Of a stretch of 64,000 nt of DNA, positions 1-61,351 are shown piece by piece. The notes under the pieces were generated by a model. It was not told the DNA's origin. It saw only the letters and a list, made by a program, of their open reading frames with translations, and made no database searches. Every line of letters begins with the position of its first letter. Position 1 is the stretch's first letter. Position numbers and translations under genes: made by a program. The DNA is from Spirochaetota bacterium (lineage in GTDB: Bacteria; Spirochaetota; UBA4802; UBA5550), in the NCBI GenBank assembly GCA_036745755.1, contig DAIOFM010000005.1:17535-81534 (forward strand), in the 5' to 3' direction.

Positions 1-633
1 TGCTATCCAGCTGGAAACCCTCTCTTCGCCATAGGTCTCTTTCATGATATTGAGAATAATATCAAGAGGTATGTCCTGGAATTCCCCGTGGTAGGAAAGA
101 TATTCCATGAATTTATTATTATCAGAATTGAATTCGTGCATTATTGAATCATCATGTCCGTTAAAGTTGAGCGGTTTGACCCTGAAATGCCTGCATAGAT
201 CAGCATTAAATGCAGGTGTGGCCTTGACCCATTTTCCTTCAAGCCATAATTCGCTGTAACCATGGGGCGCTATAATATTGGAGCCAAGGTATTCAGTAAA
301 CTGTTTTGTCGCAATATGATTTTTTACAGTGGCAAATCCTATTCGTGACGGGATCCCCGCAACACGCGCAGCAGCGCATAATAGTCCCGCTTTCTGAATA
401 CAGAATCCTTTTCCCGATTTGATTACACCGCTGGAGCGGTAATGTTCAGGCCTGTAAAAAGGGATGTAAGGGTCATACCTGATTCCGTCTCTTATGTGAT
501 AATATAATAATACAGCCTTTTCCACGTCGGTGATTTCTTTTCCTTCCAGAATGCTTTCTGTGTAGGAAATAACTTCGGTGCTGTCGCTGTCAATAATGGT
601 TCCCGGTAAAAGATATTGCTCCTGTGAAGTCAT
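1..633 (-). CDS. Transglutaminase-like (Cys-His) family protein, 3' end runs off the window
   Basis: Not in the ORF track. Manual translation from ATG at 633 (GGAGG RBS upstream) is open to base 1: MTSQEQYLLPG...IRDGIRYDPY...KGFCIQKAGLL...APHGYSELWLEGKWVKATPAFN. Confidence 0.8.
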   Translation of the reverse strand, partial: MTSQEQYLLPGTIIDSDSTEVISYTESILEGKEITDVEKAVLLYYHIRDGIRYDPYIPFYRPEHYRSSGVIKSGKGFCIQKAGLLCAAARVAGIPSRIGFATVKNHIATKQFTEYLGSNIIAPHGYSELWLEGKWVKATPAFNADLCRHFRVKPLNFNGHDDSIMHEFNSDNNKFMEYLSYHGEFQDIPLDIILNIMKETYGEERVSSWIA

Positions 634-51023: not shown

Positions 51024-51626
51024 ATGAGAAAAGGGACAGAAACAAAGGAAAGAATTATAGAGAAGGCCTTAACTCTATTTCACGAGAAAGGTTATAATCT
51101 CACAAGTATGAATGATATTGTTGAAGAAACCGGCGTAAAAAAGGGAAACCTCTATTTTCATTATAAATCAAAAGAGGAACTTGCAATCAGGGTTCTTAAA
51201 GAGGCCCTGAGGGGGTACGACAGGTTTATTTCATCCAACATGAAAGGGGCAACTCCTTTAATGAAACTAATTTCAATGATACAGGGGATCGTGGCTTTTC
51301 ATGTTGAAAGGGGCAATGGGCGAGGATGCATTTTCGGAAACATGGCTCTGGAATCTAAAGGTGAGAATCCTGCTTTAGCTGAATATATCAAATCAGTATT
51401 TACTTCATGGGAGAAAAATATAAGCGAGCTGATAGGGAGCAGTATTGAACTTGGCGAGATTTCAGGAATTGATTCGCCTGAACGTTATGCAAGGATAATT
51501 TTAGCACAGCTGGAGGGTGCAGTTATGCTGTCAAAAGTATATTCAGAATTTGAACCGCTCAGAGAGAGCGCTGAAATAATTATAGAAGGATTAAAAAGTA
51601 AAATGCGGAGAGTCGATGTATGCTGA
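51024..51626 (+). CDS. TetR/AcrR family regulator (NemR-like C-terminus)
   Basis: HTH KGYNLTSMNDIVEETGVKKGNLYFHYKSKEEL; GCIFGN. Confidence 0.92.
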   Translation: MRKGTETKERIIEKALTLFHEKGYNLTSMNDIVEETGVKKGNLYFHYKSKEELAIRVLKEALRGYDRFISSNMKGATPLMKLISMIQGIVAFHVERGNGRGCIFGNMALESKGENPALAEYIKSVFTSWEKNISELIGSSIELGEISGIDSPERYARIILAQLEGAVMLSKVYSEFEPLRESAEIIIEGLKSKMRRVDVC

Positions 51627-52738
51627 CTAAAGAGGAGATCAGGGTAAAAGCTCTTGAAATAGGATTTGCTGACGCCGGAGTTGCCGGTGTAGAACCTTTC
51701 ACCTCCCAGCTTGATTATATAGCGGTGGATGACAGGTATAAATGGACTGAGAAACTGGGCTTTAATCTTAAAAACGGTATTGAGCCACTTAATATTCTTG
51801 ATAACGGCAAGAGTCTGATTGTGCTTCTTTACTCATATTTTAATAATTCAATACCTCCCTCTCTTGAGAAGCATTACGGACGCTGTTATCTCAATGATGA
51901 CAGGGTGACAAAGGACGGACTTGCTGTGATGGTAAAAGGATTCCGTGGTTTTCTCAGGGACAACGGTATAAATACAAAGCTCGGTGTCTCAATGCCTGAA
52001 AAACTTTCCGCCATGAGGGCCGGGGTCGGTACATCCGGCAAGAACACATTGCTTTTCGCTTCGAAAAGTGCCATGAAAAGTTCTTTTATTTTCCCGATAG
52101 TAATAGTTACTGACGCTGAACTTGAACCGGACACACCCTCTGTCAGCAACGGATGTCCTGACTGGTGCAGAAACGCGTGTGTAGCAGCGTGCCCGACAAA
52201 GGCTCTGTTCGGAAATGGTAAAATTGATCCCTCAAAATGCATCTCATATCTGACATACTTCGGGAAGGGGGTTACGCCCCGTGAACTCAGGGAGCCCATG
52301 GGACTTTATATATACGGCTGTGACAGGTGTCAGAATGTTTGCCCGAGAAACGTTAACAAGATCACATCAGAAAAAGATGAAAATCCGAAGTTTGTTAAAA
52401 TGGAGGAGGATTTTGCGCCTGAAAAGATCCTTCTAATGGATCAGGAGTATTTTGAAAAAAGAATCCAGCCGTTTATGTTCTATATGTCATATAAAAGCGT
52501 ATGGCGGTGGAGGATGAATGCGGCAAGGGCCATGGGAAACAGCGGGAACAGAGAGTATATCCGGTACCTGAAACAGGCCTATGGTGAAAATGATGATGAC
52601 AGGGTAAAGATCATGATTGCCTGGGCTCTTGGAAAACTCGGTGGAGACGAATCAGGCACGGCACTTAAAGATTATCTTAAAAGTGCTGAAGGGGATTTGA
52701 AAACTGAAATTGAGATATCACTTTCTGAGATGAAATAA
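51620..52738 (+). CDS. Epoxyqueuosine reductase QueG-like Fe-S protein with C-terminal HEAT-like helices
   Basis: IGFADAGV, AMRAGVG..GKNTL, CPDWCRNACVAACP, CISYLT, GCDRCQNVCP. Confidence 0.75.
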   Translation: MLTKEEIRVKALEIGFADAGVAGVEPFTSQLDYIAVDDRYKWTEKLGFNLKNGIEPLNILDNGKSLIVLLYSYFNNSIPPSLEKHYGRCYLNDDRVTKDGLAVMVKGFRGFLRDNGINTKLGVSMPEKLSAMRAGVGTSGKNTLLFASKSAMKSSFIFPIVIVTDAELEPDTPSVSNGCPDWCRNACVAACPTKALFGNGKIDPSKCISYLTYFGKGVTPRELREPMGLYIYGCDRCQNVCPRNVNKITSEKDENPKFVKMEEDFAPEKILLMDQEYFEKRIQPFMFYMSYKSVWRWRMNAARAMGNSGNREYIRYLKQAYGENDDDRVKIMIAWALGKLGGDESGTALKDYLKSAEGDLKTEIEISLSEMK

Positions 52739-52741
52739 CAA

Positions 52742-53278
52742 TCAGTCTGTTTTTTTGTTTTCTTCAAATATCACCGGCTGATCAGATTTAATTGTAATAA
52801 CAAAGTAGACAGGCAGTTTTTCGAAAGTGGTAAAACGGATTCTGTATCTGGAAGTGCCAAGCAGAGAAAGGGGAGCATTCTTCATAGTGCAAATTTTTAC
52901 AGGGGAATAAATTGCCCAGTCATTGTTAAAATTTCTCCCCAGAGGGGCATATTTTACATTATTTTTTAAAGATTTATGACTGAGAATGATCTCTTTCTCT
53001 ATGATAAAGTATGTTTTTTTAGGGATTTTCTGTACTGGAAAGCTTTTCTGAAGATAAACAGATTCAATTTCTATTGATATACATTCAGTCTTCTGTTTTA
53101 ATGAAAAAAATACCTGGTAGGTGGTATTCCTGTCGATACGTTCATCAGATTTCTCACTGTTTTCTGTTGAATTTCCAAAAGTGTAAACCTGCGTTTCCGG
53201 GGTCTCTCTTTTACCGGCTGTACAGCCTGTGATGAGCAGCAGGGATATTATCAGGTGGATTTTTACAAAGTTTTTCAA
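52742..53278 (-). CDS. Hypothetical lipoprotein
   Basis: Lipobox ITGC; 178-aa ORF. Confidence 0.6.
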   Translation of the reverse strand: MKNFVKIHLIISLLLITGCTAGKRETPETQVYTFGNSTENSEKSDERIDRNTTYQVFFSLKQKTECISIEIESVYLQKSFPVQKIPKKTYFIIEKEIILSHKSLKNNVKYAPLGRNFNNDWAIYSPVKICTMKNAPLSLLGTSRYRIRFTTFEKLPVYFVITIKSDQPVIFEENKKTD

Positions 53279-53596: not shown

Positions 53597-56335
53597 ATGT
53601 TTCTTAAATCAATGGACATGTTCGGTTTTAAATCTTTTGCGGATAAAACGCATATTGAATTTGAGCCGGGTATAACAGCAATAGTAGGCCCCAACGGCTG
53701 TGGAAAATCTAATGTAGTTGACGCTGTAAAGTGGGTACTGGGTGAAAAGCAGGCCAAAAATATCCGCGGGCAGACAATGGAGGATATTATATTCTCCGGA
53801 ACAGATCAGAGAAAGGCGCTTTCTCTTGCTGAAGTCTCTCTCTCAATAGACAATACAAACCGCATACTCGATTTTGATTCAGAAATGGTCACTGTAAGCA
53901 GGAGAATTTTCCGTGACGGCGAATCAGAGTATCTCATAAATAAATCACCTGTAAGACTTAAAGACATAGATAAGCTTTTTATGGATACCGGTATAGGTAA
54001 ATCAGCTTATTCCGTTCTTGAGCAGGGTAAGATGGACCTTATACTTTCAACTAAAGCCGAAGACAGAAGGTATCTCTTCGAAGAAGCTGCCGGTATATCC
54101 CGTTACAAGATGCAGAAAAAGGAATCTCTTAAAAAACTTCAGGACACAGGGGAAAACCTTAACAGAATTAATGATATACTGAAAGAGATTGAAAGAGAAA
54201 AGGATCTTAAATCGAAACAGGCTGATAAGACAAAAGAATTTTTGAATCTTAAAGGTAAACTGTCCGAACTTGACATCAAGCTTAACCTGATTAAATTCCG
54301 CGAACTGGTTAAAAAATCCGATAAAAACCGGACTGACATTGAAAAGCTGAAAAGTGAACGTGAGCAGCTTGCAGGCAAAGTATCAAAAACGTCTGCTGAA
54401 AATGAAAAGGACGAAAAGAGAAAAAATGATCTTCAATACCAGCTTTTTGAAATCGAAAAGAAACTGGGTGATTACAAGGTAAGAAGAGAAACAATAGATC
54501 TTGCAACTGATAAAAACAGGCGCCTTGTTGAAGAGAATGCGGCCCGTAAAAATTCGGTAATTAAGAAAATTGAAGAGAGAAAGGAGAGCCTGGAACGCCT
54601 TGTTGAAGAGAAGAAAAAGAGTGAAAATACAGCAATTGAACTTAAAGATAAAATAATAGAGGATAAAAAGAAGCTTTCGGAGTTTTTTGAAAACCGGAAG
54701 CGAAAAATAGACTCAATACATAATTCCCGGGACAGGATTGAAGAGAACAACCGGAAGATAAAGGACAACGAGTTATCCCTTAAAAAGCTCAGGGAAGCAC
54801 TTGAAGTTGTTATTAAAAAACTCGTTGATGCCATTGAAAAGAGGAAAATTGAACTGGAAAATTCTGAAAATGAAAGGCAGGAAGTTAAAGCCCTGATTGA
54901 AACAGAATTAAACCAGATTGAAATGGATTTCAACAATGCTCTTGACGAACTGAAAATTAAGTCATTTGACAGGGCATGGATGTTTATTGAAAAGATAAGA
55001 ATCGATGTTCTAAGGGAACATATATATAAATTTGAAAGTTACGAAGATGGTTTCCGGTCAATACTTTTTGATAAAACAGGTATTCACGCGGAAAAAGAGA
55101 GTCTTGATAAACGTATTCGTGAACTTGTGCTTTCCATAGACGAAATGAGAGCCGATAACGGTATGCTTGATGAATTTATTCAGAACGAACAGCGTGAACT
55201 GGAAAACATTAATTCAATGATAACGCGGATAGAACGCGATATCGCAAAATATGAGAATGACAGCAACTGGATTGAAAAACAGGTAACTTCATTAACTCAC
55301 CAGATTGATGATATAAAGAAACAGATAGACAATTTTAATGAGGATATGCTCAGAACTGATAAGATTATAAAAGATCTTCAGATGGAGATACGCGAGTCTG
55401 AGGATAAGCTTGTTCAGTTTAACGAGAAGAGTGAAGCTCTCAGGAAGAGTGTAAATGAACTTGTAGAACGCAGAAGTGAAATAGAAAACAATATAGCCAG
55501 AAGAAAGACTGATTCCCGTAAGGATGAAGAGGAACTTGAGAGGATACACGAAAGACTTGCGGCTCTTGAACGTACCGGTGTTGAAATATCCTTTAAAAGG
55601 GACGGGATACAGGACTATCTCTGGACTGAATATGAGAAAAAGGTCACTGAACTCGGCGAAGTTAAAGTTAATGAATCAATGACTGGTGAATTACAGGCTG
55701 AAATTCAGGATATAAAGAAAAAAATTCAGGATCTCGGCCCGATAAACAATCTTGCTATTCAGGAATTCAGAGATCTGAAAAAGAGATTTGAATACTATCT
55801 TGACCAGAAGACAGATATTGAAAAGGCACGTGAAGATATTATTTCCGTAATTGAAGACATAAATAAGACCTCTGTTGAAATGTTCATGAGTACTTTCAAT
55901 GAAATTCAGAAGAATTTTGCAGAAATGTTTAAACGTTTATTTGAGGGAGGGGAGGCTTTTCTTGAGCTTTCTGAAGAGGAGAATGTCCTTGAAAGCGGTA
56001 TTGATATAATGGTAAGGCCTCCAGGGAAAAAGTTTAAAAATATCAACCTCCTTTCAGGAGGGGAGAGGGCACTTACAGCTATTGCGTTGCTTTTTGCCAC
56101 ATACATGGTCAAACCGTCACCATTCTGTTTCCTTGATGAAATTGACGCTCCTCTTGATGAACAGAATATTGGCAGGTTTGTAAAAATGCTCCGGGAATTC
56201 TCTAAAAGTACCCAGTTTATCATAGTTACTCATAATAAGAAAACTATGCATATCAGTGAGTCAATATACGGGGTAACAATGGAGGAGCCGGGTGCCTCAA
56301 AGATTATATCCGTAAAGATGGACAGGCCTGAATAA
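53597..56335 (+). CDS. smc: SMC-family chromosome segregation ATPase (short, 912 aa)
   Basis: GFKSF, Walker A GPNGCGKSN, Q-loop EQG, LGPINNLA, signature LSGGE, Walker B LDEIDAPLD, VTHNK, YGVTMEE.G.S. Confidence 0.93.
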   Translation: MFLKSMDMFGFKSFADKTHIEFEPGITAIVGPNGCGKSNVVDAVKWVLGEKQAKNIRGQTMEDIIFSGTDQRKALSLAEVSLSIDNTNRILDFDSEMVTVSRRIFRDGESEYLINKSPVRLKDIDKLFMDTGIGKSAYSVLEQGKMDLILSTKAEDRRYLFEEAAGISRYKMQKKESLKKLQDTGENLNRINDILKEIEREKDLKSKQADKTKEFLNLKGKLSELDIKLNLIKFRELVKKSDKNRTDIEKLKSEREQLAGKVSKTSAENEKDEKRKNDLQYQLFEIEKKLGDYKVRRETIDLATDKNRRLVEENAARKNSVIKKIEERKESLERLVEEKKKSENTAIELKDKIIEDKKKLSEFFENRKRKIDSIHNSRDRIEENNRKIKDNELSLKKLREALEVVIKKLVDAIEKRKIELENSENERQEVKALIETELNQIEMDFNNALDELKIKSFDRAWMFIEKIRIDVLREHIYKFESYEDGFRSILFDKTGIHAEKESLDKRIRELVLSIDEMRADNGMLDEFIQNEQRELENINSMITRIERDIAKYENDSNWIEKQVTSLTHQIDDIKKQIDNFNEDMLRTDKIIKDLQMEIRESEDKLVQFNEKSEALRKSVNELVERRSEIENNIARRKTDSRKDEEELERIHERLAALERTGVEISFKRDGIQDYLWTEYEKKVTELGEVKVNESMTGELQAEIQDIKKKIQDLGPINNLAIQEFRDLKKRFEYYLDQKTDIEKAREDIISVIEDINKTSVEMFMSTFNEIQKNFAEMFKRLFEGGEAFLELSEEENVLESGIDIMVRPPGKKFKNINLLSGGERALTAIALLFATYMVKPSPFCFLDEIDAPLDEQNIGRFVKMLREFSKSTQFIIVTHNKKTMHISESIYGVTMEEPGASKIISVKMDRPE

Positions 56336-56441: not shown

Positions 56442-56999
56442 ATGAAAATAACAGCTGATGGTATTCTGGGTTCCGCCCAGAAAATTAACAATAAACGCAA
56501 AGTAGATGAAGGGAACAGTAAAGATAACAGAAAAGATATAAAAACTGATTCCCTTGCTCTCGGTAAGGCGATAAATTCTCGGATCGAGTCTATTGAAAGG
56601 GAAATTAAAGATATACAGACCTCTCTGACAAAAAACCAGATAATTCGTGAAGGTATTGACAACATCCTGAAAAACAGCTCACCGGAAAATATTAATCAGG
56701 CACTTGAAGTTTCATCTTTTGAAGGGAGAAAGATCCTTAAGGAATTTCTTGGTAATGATATGACCCCTTCCGCGCTTGAAACTAAGAAGAGTGAAATAAC
56801 TAAGCTGATTAATAATGACATCAATAATCTTACAAAGGTACAGGTTGAAGTTGACAATATTATAGCTTCAAATCTTACGGGCAACAGGAAAGTCGAAAAT
56901 CTGATGTCAAATATGAATGATATTTTCAGGAATACTCCATCGAATCTTGAAACAATATCAAAGCTTGATGCAGACAAAGTAATGAAACTTGTCAGGTGA
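56442..56999 (+). CDS. Small flagellin-like hypothetical protein
   Basis: SFEGRKIL resembles flagellin F(N)GxKLL; NNLTKVQVEVDNIIAS and terminal DKVMKLVR resemble the flagellin C-terminal helices. Confidence 0.45.
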   Translation: MKITADGILGSAQKINNKRKVDEGNSKDNRKDIKTDSLALGKAINSRIESIEREIKDIQTSLTKNQIIREGIDNILKNSSPENINQALEVSSFEGRKILKEFLGNDMTPSALETKKSEITKLINNDINNLTKVQVEVDNIIASNLTGNRKVENLMSNMNDIFRNTPSNLETISKLDADKVMKLVR

Positions 57000-58223: not shown

Positions 58224-58532
58224 ATGAGTGACGATTACATAGAAAAAGATTTTGATGATGAAGTTTATGAAGACGACTATTATGAAGAACATTATAATGA
58301 GGAAGAGTTAACCGATCTTGATGAGTTTTCTGATGAAGATGATGATTCGGATGAAGGTGATGAGGAGCGTGGTGAACGCCGCGAAAGAAAAGTTCATATA
58401 AGCTATGCGTGTGAAGATTGTGATTATAGATGGGATGACGTCGTAATAAAAAAACGTGACGAATTTGAGGAAGATTTAGAGACTGATGTAATTTGCCCCA
58501 TGTGCGGTTCGGCGAATATAACCCTTATATGA
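58224..58532 (+). CDS. Highly acidic small protein with C-terminal Zn ribbon
   Basis: 28 of the first 48 residues are D/E; CEDC...CPMC; GGAAAGG RBS; stop overlaps the uvrA ATG (ATGA). Confidence 0.75.
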
Positions 58533-61351
58533 AAGACCGTAAAATAATAATAAAGGGGGCGAGAGAGCACAATCTAAAAAACATTTCGCTGGAACTTCCG
58601 AGGGACCAGCTTCTTGTAATAACCGGGCTTTCAGGGTCCGGTAAATCATCTCTGGCCTTTGACACAATATACGCAGAGGGACAGAGAAGATACGTTGAGT
58701 CACTCTCAGCATATGCGAGGCAGTTTCTCGGTTTAATGGAAAAACCGGATGTAGATTTTATTGATGGCCTTTCACCCGCTATATCTATAGAGCAGAAAAC
58801 AACTCACCGTAACCCCAGATCAACAGTAGGAACTGTAACGGAAATTTATGATTATTTCAGGCTCCTTTATGCGAGGATAGGCGTCCCCTATTGTCATTGC
58901 TGCGGGAAGAAGATCACATCACAGTCCGTGGACCAGATCGTTGAATCACTTATGACTATGAGGAAGGGGACGAAACTTCAGATCCTTGCCCCTCTTGTTC
59001 GTGGTAAAAAGGGTGAACATGCTGATAAAATTGAACATGCCAGTAAAAACGGTTTTGTCAGGCTTCGTGTTGATGGTGAATTTTTCACTGTTGATGACAG
59101 CATCAGCCTTGAGAAAAACAAAAAGCATTCAATTGATATAGTTGTAGACAGACTTGTAGTTAAGGACGGCATAAGGCCGAGACTTACAGATTCTGTTGAG
59201 ACATCGATTGATATGGGGGAGGGGCTTGTATCAGTCATTACTGATGATTCAGAACTTATATATTCCACACAGCTTTCATGTCCTGATTGCGGGATTTCAA
59301 TACCTGAACTCTCCCCCAGGATGTTTTCATTTAACAGCCCGTACGGAGCCTGCCCTGAGTGTGACGGACTCGGCTTTATAATGCAGTTTGACCCGGAAAG
59401 GATAGTTTCAGATCCTTCAAAATCACTGAATGAAGGTGTACTTGAAGTATGGGGGAAAAGCACCAGTTACTGGTATCTTGAAACTGTGCAGGCCCTTGGC
59501 AGGAGCCTTGGCTTTGACCCTGACACTCCATGGAAAGATCTCACGGAAGATATTAAGGACGTTATCCTGTACGGTACCGGCGGCAGTAAGGTTAATTATA
59601 ATATAAAACGAAAAGATTCGGAGTTTAAGTTTTCCAAAAGATTTGAAGGAGTGCTTCCGAATCTTGAACGCAGGTACAGGGAGACAAATTCAGAAGAGAT
59701 GCGTATGTGGATGGAGAAATACATGGCAAACACAAAGTGTCCCGCCTGCGAAGGAATGAGGCTCCGTCCTGAAAGCCGTGCCGTTAAAGTTGCCGGTAAA
59801 AAAATAAGTGAAATTACTTCACTCTCAATATCAGATTCGTTCAGGTTTTTCTCTGAAATAAAACTTACTCCGACTGAGTCTAAAATTTCTGAACAGGTAA
59901 TTAAGGAGATAAAATCAAGGCTTAAATTTCTTAATGATGTGGGAATTGAGTACCTGACACTTGACAGAGCAGCCGGAACTCTCTCGGGAGGGGAGTCACA
60001 GAGAATACGTCTGGCAACACAGATCGGCGCGAGCCTGACCGGCGTGCTGTATGTTCTGGATGAGCCCAGCATAGGGCTGCATCAGAGAGACAACGCGAGG
60101 CTATTAAAGACTCTGAAGCATCTGCGTGATATCGGCAATACAGTGATTGTTGTTGAACATGATGAAGAAACAATTATGGAAGCTGACTATGTTGTAGACC
60201 TGGGACCGGGTGCGGGTGTTAACGGGGGATATATAGTCGCTACCGGAATCCCTGAGGAAATCAAAAAATCTGAAAAATCGATAACCGGAAACTATCTCTC
60301 TGGCAAAAAAACCATACCGGTGCCTGAAACAAGAAGAACAGCTGAATCTTTCATAACATTAAAGGGTGCGAGGGAAAACAATCTTAAAAATCTTGAAGTC
60401 AGATTCCCGCTTGGTGTTTTCACTACTGTTACCGGGGTTTCCGGATCAGGAAAATCATCCCTTGTTATCGAGATTCTCTACAGGGCGTTATCTTCGCTTA
60501 TAATGAAGTCAAAGGAGTATCCCGGAGCATTCAGTGAGATAACCGGCCTTGAGGCAATTGATAAAGTAATAGATATTGACCAGTCACCAATAGGCAGAAC
60601 TCCAAGATCAAATCCGGCTACTTATACAGGCCTTTTTACTCCTATACGGGAGCTTTTCGCCAGACTACCAGAGTCAAAAATGAGAGGCTACAAGCCCGGG
60701 CGTTTTTCATTCAATGTTCATGGCGGCAGGTGTGAATCCTGTGAGGGTGACGGGGTTAAAAAGATTGAAATGCACTTCCTTCCTGACGTTTATATAACCT
60801 GCGATGTGTGTAAAGGTAAAAGATATAATCACGAAACCCTTGAAGTGAGATATAAAGGGAAGAATATATTTGAAGTTCTTGATATGACTGTTGATGAGGC
60901 GGCACCTTTTTTTGAGAATATTCCCTCTGTTAATTCAAAACTGCAGACGCTTCAAAGAGTCGGGCTCGGATATATCAAACTCGGTCAGCCGGCTACTACT
61001 CTCTCGGGCGGTGAAGCGCAGAGAATCAAACTTGCTACTGAACTGTCTAAAAGGGCAACCGGAAAAACTCTTTATATTCTTGATGAACCTACAACCGGGC
61101 TCCATTTCGATGACATAAAGAAGCTTATTGAGGTTCTTAATTCACTGGTCGAAAAGGGAAATACTGTAATTGTCATAGAGCATAATCTTGATGTAATTAA
61201 AACTGCTGACTGGATTATTGATCTGGGGCCTGAAGGTGGCGATGCGGGAGGAAATCTTATAGGTGAGGGTACACCTGAAGAATTAAGTAAAATCCGCGGT
61301 TCCTATACCGGTCAGTTTCTTGCAAAAATTCTGAAGAAGAAAAACAGGTAA
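58529..61351 (+). CDS. uvrA: Excinuclease ABC subunit A
   Basis: [18 protein letters not shown], two LSGGE signatures, Zn fingers, GVSGSGKSS; real start ATG at 58529 (ORF track 58493). Confidence 0.98.

Follow-up and report, generated by a model that had tools for sequence, protein, structure and literature searches.

The smc gene and its product

The window analysed here is a stretch of 64,000 nucleotides from contig DAIOFM010000005.1 of the Spirochaetota bacterium assembly GCA_036745755.1 (lineage UBA4802; UBA5550), and the element under study is its smc gene, an open reading frame (ORF) at 53597..56335 on the forward strand whose translation gives a protein of 912 aa. The product is orthologous to bacterial Smc, which acts as the motor of the Smc-ScpAB condensin. 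Judged by profile searches and structure prediction, its globular hinge (about 150 residues) has been lost in evolution. The gene is laid out as follows:

53597..56335, + strand: smc gene, hinge-less Smc of 912 aa, stop codon included (ORF and translation; TIGR02168; SMC_N)
53597..54097, + strand: N-terminal half of the ATPase head, residues 1-167, with Walker A at 53687-53710 (motif scan; match of residues 1-220 to 5xg3; AlphaFold2 model)
54098..54955, + strand: ascending (N-terminal) coiled-coil strand, residues 168-453, with a low-confidence break at 256-265 (AlphaFold2 helices 168-255 and 266-453; fragment model helix 381-453)
54956..55081, + strand: apex, residues 454-495, with tip loop 454-456, helices 457-465, 469-484 and 487-490, and conserved loop 491-495 (FDKTG) (AlphaFold2 models)
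55052..55096, + strand: putative hinge vestige, residues 486-500 (FRSILFDKTGIHAEK) (conservation; hhalign; column shuffles)
55082..55942, + strand: descending (C-terminal) strand, residues 496-782, with a break at 637-644 and irregular at 680-719 (AlphaFold2 helices 496-636, 645-679, 683-686, 693-713 and 720-782)
55943..56332, + strand: C-terminal half of the ATPase head, residues 783-912, with LSGGE at 56051-56065 and FCFLDE at 56123-56140 (motif scan; PDB head matches; AlphaFold2 model)

The protein passes TIGR02168, the NCBIfam equivalog model of bacterial Smc, with 815.7 bits (cut-off 567.35), in a match that is split in two, covering profile positions 1-530 and 748-1181 and leaving those between them unmatched. 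SMC_N (PF02463) covers residues 2-901 in Pfam (E 1.5e-60). In the search of PDB sequences the head found 5xg3, a structure of the head and joint of B. subtilis Smc (E 2.8e-135 for the whole sequence), and no hinge-only entry was matched. A motif scan places Walker A (GPNGCGKS) at residues 31-38, the signature LSGGE at 819-823 and Walker B (FCFLDE) at 843-848, and Q143, D847 and H879 are invariant in an alignment of 81 rows; a preliminary description of this DNA, which had reported 912 aa with all head motifs present, was accurate in this respect. Two other identities were considered and rejected: Rad50/SbcC, for which the best Rad50 model reached 87.6 bits against a cut-off of 700 and the CxxC zinc hook is absent, and RecN, for which TIGR00634 gave 40 bits against a cut-off of 407.85.

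The ORF product is the only Smc of the genome. The assembly (4.06 Mb, 183 contigs, 82% complete) holds no second SMC_N protein of Smc size; its remaining strong SMC_N frames have 368 and 571 aa, sizes that presumably reflect RecF and RecN. The genes for ScpA (E 1.7e-30) and ScpB (E 2.9e-48), which the preliminary description had proposed to look for, are both present and lie side by side on contig C7, away from smc.

Absence of hinge and hook

SMC_hinge (PF06470) is not among the 16 Pfam families that the window's Smc matches at E<=10, and it has no match anywhere in the 82%-complete assembly. As a positive control, the same family was detected in five of five canonical Smc, spanning about 120 residues in them. 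A custom hinge profile hidden Markov model (HMM), built from 57 canonical Smc and run with filters off, matched none of 149 relatives and none of 34 phylum members. It matched 70 of 78 named proteins, 57 of these being its own training rows, and its eight misses were four spirochaetes, one truncated Treponema frame, one fragment of 318 aa and two Omnitrophota proteins. Residues 291 to 485 enclose a stretch free of glycine. C35 and C844 are the sole cysteines of the protein, so a CxxC hook is likewise missing.

Structure prediction agrees with the profile searches. Two AlphaFold2 models were computed, one of residues 380-560 (91-row alignment; mean predicted local distance difference test, pLDDT, of 90.6) and one of the full-length protein (81-row alignment, pLDDT 81.4), from which we take secondary structure and confidence values, as prediction only. 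The fragment is modelled as wholly helical (helices 381-453, 457-465 and 469-490, a loop at 491-495, and helix 496-559), and the full-length model consists of the head and of helices running from 168 to 782, with no further globular domain.

A real hinge fold, so divergent that the models missed it, would be an alternative to loss, and the vestigial motif described below does represent some surviving hinge sequence. Nevertheless, only about 40 residues lie between the helix end at 453 and the helix start at 496, where PF06470 occupies about 120 in the controls; both AlphaFold2 models are confident and purely helical there; and neither Pfam at E<=10 nor the unfiltered custom HMM found anything. 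We regard a hidden hinge as very improbable.

The preliminary description had argued that the protein lacks a recognisable hinge as well as a CxxC or zinc hook, and the Pfam search, the custom HMM, the two all-helical models and the count of two cysteines all bear this out. The SMC_hinge scan it had suggested gave no match, and a divergent hinge was recovered neither by an HMM nor by a structure model. Its further claim that the glycine motif GX6GX3GG is missing needs qualification: the exact motif is absent, but a vestige of 14 residues is present at 486-499.

Distribution across Spirochaetota

The loss of the hinge is common to all sampled Spirochaetota. Our sample of the phylum comprises 151 genomes from 45 families and 85 genera, 131 of them of high quality, and SMC_hinge was found in none of the 151 (0/131 of the high-quality ones), while the same search was positive in 10 of 14 control genomes. 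Smc itself, as defined by TIGR02168, is present in 145 of the 151, always matched as two stretches, the open frames measuring about 915-1,130 aa, and ScpB in 140; the family of the saprophyte Leptospira biflexa is among those with ScpB. Seven diverse members of the phylum, ranging from 817 aa up to forms of 1,070-1,081 aa, gave no SMC_hinge match at E<=1, and at E<=0.001 PF06470 was absent from four named Smc, of Leptospira interrogans, Treponema, Spirochaetaceae and Spirochaetales. Among the close relatives listed as matches (651-975 aa, down to 60% identity), 120 of 120 lack PF06470 in their precomputed domain lists; the names they bear are those of Spirochaetota or Leptospirales metagenome-assembled genomes (MAGs). 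A degenerate hinge in the long Smc (1,070-1,081 aa) of four families was also considered and rejected: it was found in 0/4 at E<=1, and their surplus length is coiled coil.

These counts bear on the possibility of an artefact, namely a gene that was misassembled or has an internal deletion, the genome being metagenome-assembled. With 183 contigs and 82% completeness the assembly would allow for such an error. The same length and architecture recur, however, in all 120 listed relatives, which come from several sources, and also in named species in culture and in phylum members whose genomes are complete in a single contig, and we consider this explanation refuted.

The preliminary description had supposed that the trait may be lineage-wide, and the contrast of 0/151 genomes with a hinge and 145/151 with Smc makes the case more strongly than it had been put. 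It had also called spirochaete Smc proteins known to be short; short they are, but our literature searches found no paper that says so.

In a FastTree phylogeny of 65 Smc, in which the hinge columns had been removed by an 80% fill rule, the hinge-less spirochaete rows need one state change, on a branch of weak support (51). A single origin of the loss is weakly supported by this tree. The window's Smc joins first the members of its own order and after them Leptospiraceae (99).

Several side observations were made in the course of this survey. In six of the 151 genomes (G005, G046, G020, G055, G057 and G136, 85-99% complete) Smc was not matched at E<=1e-20; one of them, G055, has ScpB all the same. 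The Smc of the phylum fall into length classes of 817 aa (the Borrelia-like genome G115), about 912-995 aa (most genomes) and 1,070-1,081 aa (families f20, f33, f39 and f41). The steps between the classes, about 50 and 80 residues per arm strand, recall the discrete functional arm-length windows reported for B. subtilis Smc (PMC5344682). Many of the proteins are named simply 'AAA family ATPase' or 'hypothetical protein' at source, including those of cultured Borrelia and Borreliella. Finally, two Omnitrophota Smc, L058 and L060 (1,102 and 1,113 aa), show no SMC_hinge at E<=0.001 over the whole protein or at E<=5 over the centre, nor a match to the custom HMM, and carry a short, proline-containing, apparently non-helical insert in the place of the hinge. 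Their loss looks independent, because the tree puts them with a hinge-bearing Smc (support 99).

Anatomy of the coiled coil

The arm of the protein is predicted to be one intramolecular antiparallel coiled coil that ends in an all-helical hairpin. The helices of the full-length model are interrupted at 256-265, 454-456, 466-468, 485-486, 491-495, 637-644, 680-692 and 714-719. The residue ranges of hairpin matches obtained with VIA-align, together with the paired breaks of the arm, give a pairing rule for the two strands of i+j ~900-910, with about 907 taken as its value for the apex. From this rule it appears that the tip lies at 454-456, with balanced strands on either side (168-453 versus 457 to about 745), and that the descending strand is interrupted by the FDKTG loop, which faces residues 412-416 and lies about 38 residues below the tip. 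The rise of a coiled coil is 0.1485 nm per residue, at which the N-terminal strand of about 286 residues is calculated to extend over about 42 nm. The preliminary description had read some 590 aa as coiled coil, almost without interruption apart from a short break around the midpoint, and the modelled helices from 168 to 782 agree with it. The 52-aa string that it quoted for the break corresponds to residues 444-495; the FDKTG region within it is, according to the models and the strand pairing, not the tip of the hairpin.

The low-confidence breaks at 256-265 and 637-644 (54362..54391 and 55505..55528) are paired and lie about 90 residues from the head. In the models they could mark a flexible point, for instance an elbow or the distal edge of the joint.

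Comparison of the apex with known structures and sequences gave little beyond coiled coil. Foldseek found no match to the apex model in PDB at E<=0.001, and phmmer with residues 380-560 found nothing under E = 1 among PDB sequences. VIA-align against 48,161 chains reached a best Z of 10.1, where about 13 is quoted as noise for helical models, and returned only generic helical hairpins and coiled coils, its matches being antiparallel hairpins and SMC arm segments; in its rows for the hinge entries 5h69_B, 4rsj_A and 4rsi_B only the coiled-coil stubs were aligned. A search with the apex alone (residues 430-540) found 146 proteins, of which all the named ones are Spirochaetota or Leptospirales MAGs or bear the name 'bacterium'; the search was word-based, and distant apexes would escape it.

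A conserved segment resembling the end of the hinge

The most conserved segment of the apex is the stretch around the FDKTG loop. Conservation was measured over 116 relatives that share under 80% identity with the query: the window 481-495 (SYEDGFRSILFDKTG) attains 4.09 bits per column, equal to the windows of Walker A and B (4.04-4.25), as compared with 1.8-3.0 bits for the arms and only 1.76-1.86 for the tip windows 436-465. The window opposite on the ascending helix, 406-420, is raised as well (3.84 bits). E483, D484, R487, D492, K500 and E501 are kept in at least 90% of the 81 rows, G495 and K500 also in 90% or more of the rows when the alignments span the phylum, and a pattern hydrophobic-x2-L-[FY]-x3-G-x4-K is common to the Leptospira-, Treponema- and long-form sequences.

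This segment resembles the end of the canonical hinge. MAFFT sets the motif on that end, so that 'FLAPGGIITKKR' of a Spirochaetaceae protein stands under 'VVNPGGSMTGG'. When 29 spirochaete apexes were compared with 57 canonical hinge regions in hhalign, a single local alignment resulted, with 486-499 on 'LEGDVVNPGGSMTG' (score 40.4, probability 68%, E 4.7e-5, 14 columns). None of 150 column shuffles of the canonical alignment reached that score (best 17.0, mean 11.6, SD 1.9), and a control with the alignment reversed scored 29.5 over one column. The strands that bear the glycine motif are integral to the dimer interface of the hinge, and mutation of the glycines disrupts dimerisation in vitro (PMC5290277). 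On account of the conservation, the profile alignment and this published role, we read residues 486-499 as a vestige of the last, dimer-interface strands of the hinge, an identification for which the sequence evidence is suggestive. The preliminary description had envisaged a different apex module, but the apex does not seem wholly new if its most conserved segment resembles hinge interface strands.

Are the apexes still joined?

The reading that we favour, and consider probable, is that the protein is a Smc orthologue that has lost its hinge, works with ScpA and ScpB, and still has its apexes joined, so that the ring is closed without a channel. Apex dimerisation and closure of the ring are what we infer from the conservation of 481-500, from the apparent derivation of this segment from the hinge interface, and from published replacements of the hinge. 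Two Smc would be joined at the apex via the strand remnant, the terminal hairpin or both; this joining would produce a closed ring lacking the hinge channel, a channel-less clasp; the ring would load and move on DNA as a condensin; and the toroid of canonical hinges, which gates single-stranded DNA (ssDNA), would be absent from it. A more specific version is possible, but in our opinion doubtful: that the hinge of the Spirochaetota Smc-ScpAB was cut down to a 'micro-clasp' of the last strands and a helical hairpin, which keeps the ring shut with no ssDNA channel, and that this explains the pattern of arm contacts in Borrelia. A homodimer prediction with two copies of residues 380-560 (91-row alignment) gave scores of 0.35, 0.30 and 0.29 against a mark of 0.42, in a run made without controls that speaks neither for nor against binding.

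The published replacements are of two kinds. In B. subtilis Smc(Zh) the zinc hook of Rad50 can replace the hinge (PMC5344682), and ecJET(core), a hinge-less Wadjet with an elbow disulfide, acts on DNA only with its apex held shut (preprint 10.1101/2025.03.17.643644). Like the spirochaete protein, both are SMC motors without a natural hinge, and both indicate that the fold is dispensable while the apex stays joined; they differ from it in being laboratory constructs with a defined link, whereas the spirochaete substitute, if there is one, is natural.

Several observations count against a joined apex and a closed ring. In close relatives no part of the arm is less conserved than the tip hairpin, whose hydrophobic pattern is mostly a plain a/d one; a conserved interface of four helices would lead one to expect otherwise. 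The alignment of the vestige is short (14 columns, 68% probability), only one of five canonical glycines is kept, and AlphaFold2 shows the segment as helix plus loop, with no strands. ParB (TIGR00180, PF02195) was not found in the 82%-complete assembly, probably owing to an assembly gap, because five of five genomes of the same family carry it. Finally, Hi-C maps of Borrelia show no arm juxtaposition and no inter-arm diagonal (PMC10406323), so that a hinge-less Smc may not be a standard loop extruder, although Borrelia also lacks ScpB.

Some of these observations would be accommodated by an apex that does not dimerise at all, the Smc pair being held at the head end by ATP-dependent engagement and the ScpA bridge, perhaps with zipping of the arms, as an open clamp. 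Heads-only dimerisation of this kind was the second option named in the preliminary description. There is neither hinge nor hook; the poorly conserved tip hairpin has a hydrophobic pattern that suits two strands only; and Borrelia lacks the inter-arm diagonal of other Smc-carrying bacteria (PMC10406323). But the conservation of 481-495, on a par with the Walker motifs, would be superfluous in a coiled coil that simply ends free. Moreover, the hinge-less Wadjet becomes inactive once its apex link is reduced, from which its authors conclude that a closed ring is required (preprint 10.1101/2025.03.17.643644), and the B. subtilis hinge can be replaced by another dimerisation module (PMC5344682). 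We consider joining at the head end alone rather unlikely.

Comparison with other SMC proteins

With canonical Smc of the B. subtilis type the window's Smc shares an orthologous head, passage of TIGR02168, a long antiparallel coiled coil (as predicted) and a genome encoding ScpA and ScpB. It differs in having neither the globular hinge nor its GX5GGX3GG motif, of which a remnant of 14 residues is left, and in its length of 912 aa versus about 1,186. The C-terminal strand from remnant to head measures about 250 residues, against about 350 estimated for the canonical control L063, with the motif of the latter at 657-664 and its C-terminal head assumed to start near residue 1010. Rad50/SbcC and RecN are likewise composed of a head and a coiled coil with a non-hinge apex, and RecN joins through its coiled-coil tips; the window's Smc, however, has no CxxC and scores far below the cut-offs of these families.

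The Smc of Borrelia and Borreliella (bb0045, 'P115 protein') belongs to the same hinge-less family. In genome G115 it has 817 aa, is 25-31% identical to the window's Smc and 99% identical to a named Borrelia protein, and shows no SMC_hinge at E<=1. The best 49 rows of a search with it are proteins of 800-821 aa, bearing no names other than Borrelia or Borreliella and none with PF06470 listed; lower rows, of 1,160-1,272 aa, do list PF06470. Compared with the window's Smc it is smaller by about 95 residues and has a far more divergent sequence, and its apex motif L-[FY]-x3-G-x4-K is recognisable but degenerate. ScpB, present in the window's genome, is lacking in the Borrelia lineage (in G115 according to our search, in B. 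burgdorferi according to PMC10406323). The Borrelia smc forms ParB-dependent foci at oriC, its product is enriched at parS, and its deletion lowers the oriC copy number (PMC9712426), which indicates that, in Borrelia, a hinge-less Smc is functional in vivo. In PMC10406323 bb0045 is called 'a canonical Smc' and the missing inter-arm contacts are ascribed to the absence of ScpB; the word 'hinge' is absent from that paper.

A 'hinge-less' SMC cluster has been described from ocean metagenomes (PMC12153180), whose authors regard it as a variant within SMC and not as Rad50/SbcC. Like the window's Smc it has an SMC head and an arm but no hinge and no CxxC, a likeness of architecture only. By its description, on which our comparison is based, the cluster is monophyletic and placed within or near Actinobacteria, and 'spirochaet' does not occur in the accessible text; the window's Smc, as said, groups with Leptospiraceae. 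The channel-less hinges named in the accessible part of the preprint 10.1101/2025.03.17.643644 are those of Wadjet-II, Wadjet-III, MukBEF and Acetobacter Smc, which have longer arms, and spirochaetes are not mentioned there.

Neighbouring genes and a possible partner at the apex

The neighbours of smc are ordinary: a Rrf2 regulator, a TetR regulator, a 4Fe-4S/HEAT protein, three ORFs of unknown family and uvrA. Those that enter the discussion are:

51620..52738, + strand: 4Fe-4S plus HEAT-repeat protein, upstream of smc, housekeeping
52742..53278, - strand: small ORF upstream of smc, 178 aa, no family above cut-off
56442..56999, + strand: small ORF downstream of smc, 185 aa, no family above cut-off
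58493..61351, + strand: uvrA, 952 aa, about 2 kb downstream of smc, housekeeping

The 185-aa ORF bears a weak likeness to LIC10415 (31 bits against a cut-off of 180). Both flanking ORFs, of 178 and 185 aa, are syntenic with smc in two of three relatives checked, the two being of the same family, and the downstream ORFs were not found beside smc in the one genome of another family that was checked. Neither flanking ORF is related to the 176-aa ORF that adjoins smc in Leptospira interrogans. The idea of a partner gene linked to smc was dropped for want of evidence.

The same observations bear on another interpretation of the break at 485-500, namely that it serves not for self-association but for the docking of DNA, or of a partner protein, particular to the lineage, by which the apex is closed or regulated. 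The invariant charged and polar residues around the motif (E483, D484, R487, D492, K500 and E501), the conserved window 406-420 on the opposite N-terminal strand (3.84 bits) and the synteny of the ORF at 56442..56999 with smc in two of the three relatives would all be in keeping with it. The synteny was not found, however, in the other-family genome, the neighbour in Leptospira interrogans is unrelated, no partner was found, and the apparent origin of the motif from the hinge interface fits self-association more simply. A docking site is in our view improbable, and we retain the joined apex as the preferred explanation.

Significance

The hinge-less SMC is already known as a category; what is new is a lineage-wide form of Smc in spirochaetes. 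No paper describing the loss of the hinge in spirochaete Smc came up in full-text literature searches, which did not extend to supplements (the arm-length tables of PMC5344682, for example, might list or exclude spirochaete sequences), and the first 300,000 characters of PMC7203096 do not contain the word 'hinge'. Surveys that find the arms by aligning the hinge, the method of PMC5344682, probably drop the spirochaete proteins, and many hinge-less Smc are annotated only as 'AAA family ATPase'. The locus is typical of its phylum, and it is the phylum-wide trait that seems to have gone unremarked and to be mechanistically informative.

What the SMC hinge does has long been an open question. According to the preprint 10.1101/2025.03.17.643644, the toroid is a gate for ssDNA that serves the bypass of obstacles, and the hinge is dispensable for loop extrusion if the ring is closed. 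A whole phylum whose sole Smc is hinge-less, with arms mostly shorter than canonical ones and mostly with ScpA and ScpB, is a natural test of such ideas, and the phylum holds cultivable, genetically tractable genera. The missing hinge also offers an alternative or additional explanation for the lack of inter-arm contacts in Borrelia. If the hinge has indeed been reduced to a clasp of the last strands and a helical hairpin, the absence of arm juxtaposition in Borrelia would be explained by the missing hinge, beyond the missing ScpB, and there would be no compensation by longer arms, unlike in other channel-less SMC proteins. If the hinge-gate model holds as well, spirochaete condensins could not bypass ssDNA-linked obstacles by the hinge route. 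With such a clasp, cultivable spirochaetes would represent a natural knock-out of hinge function.

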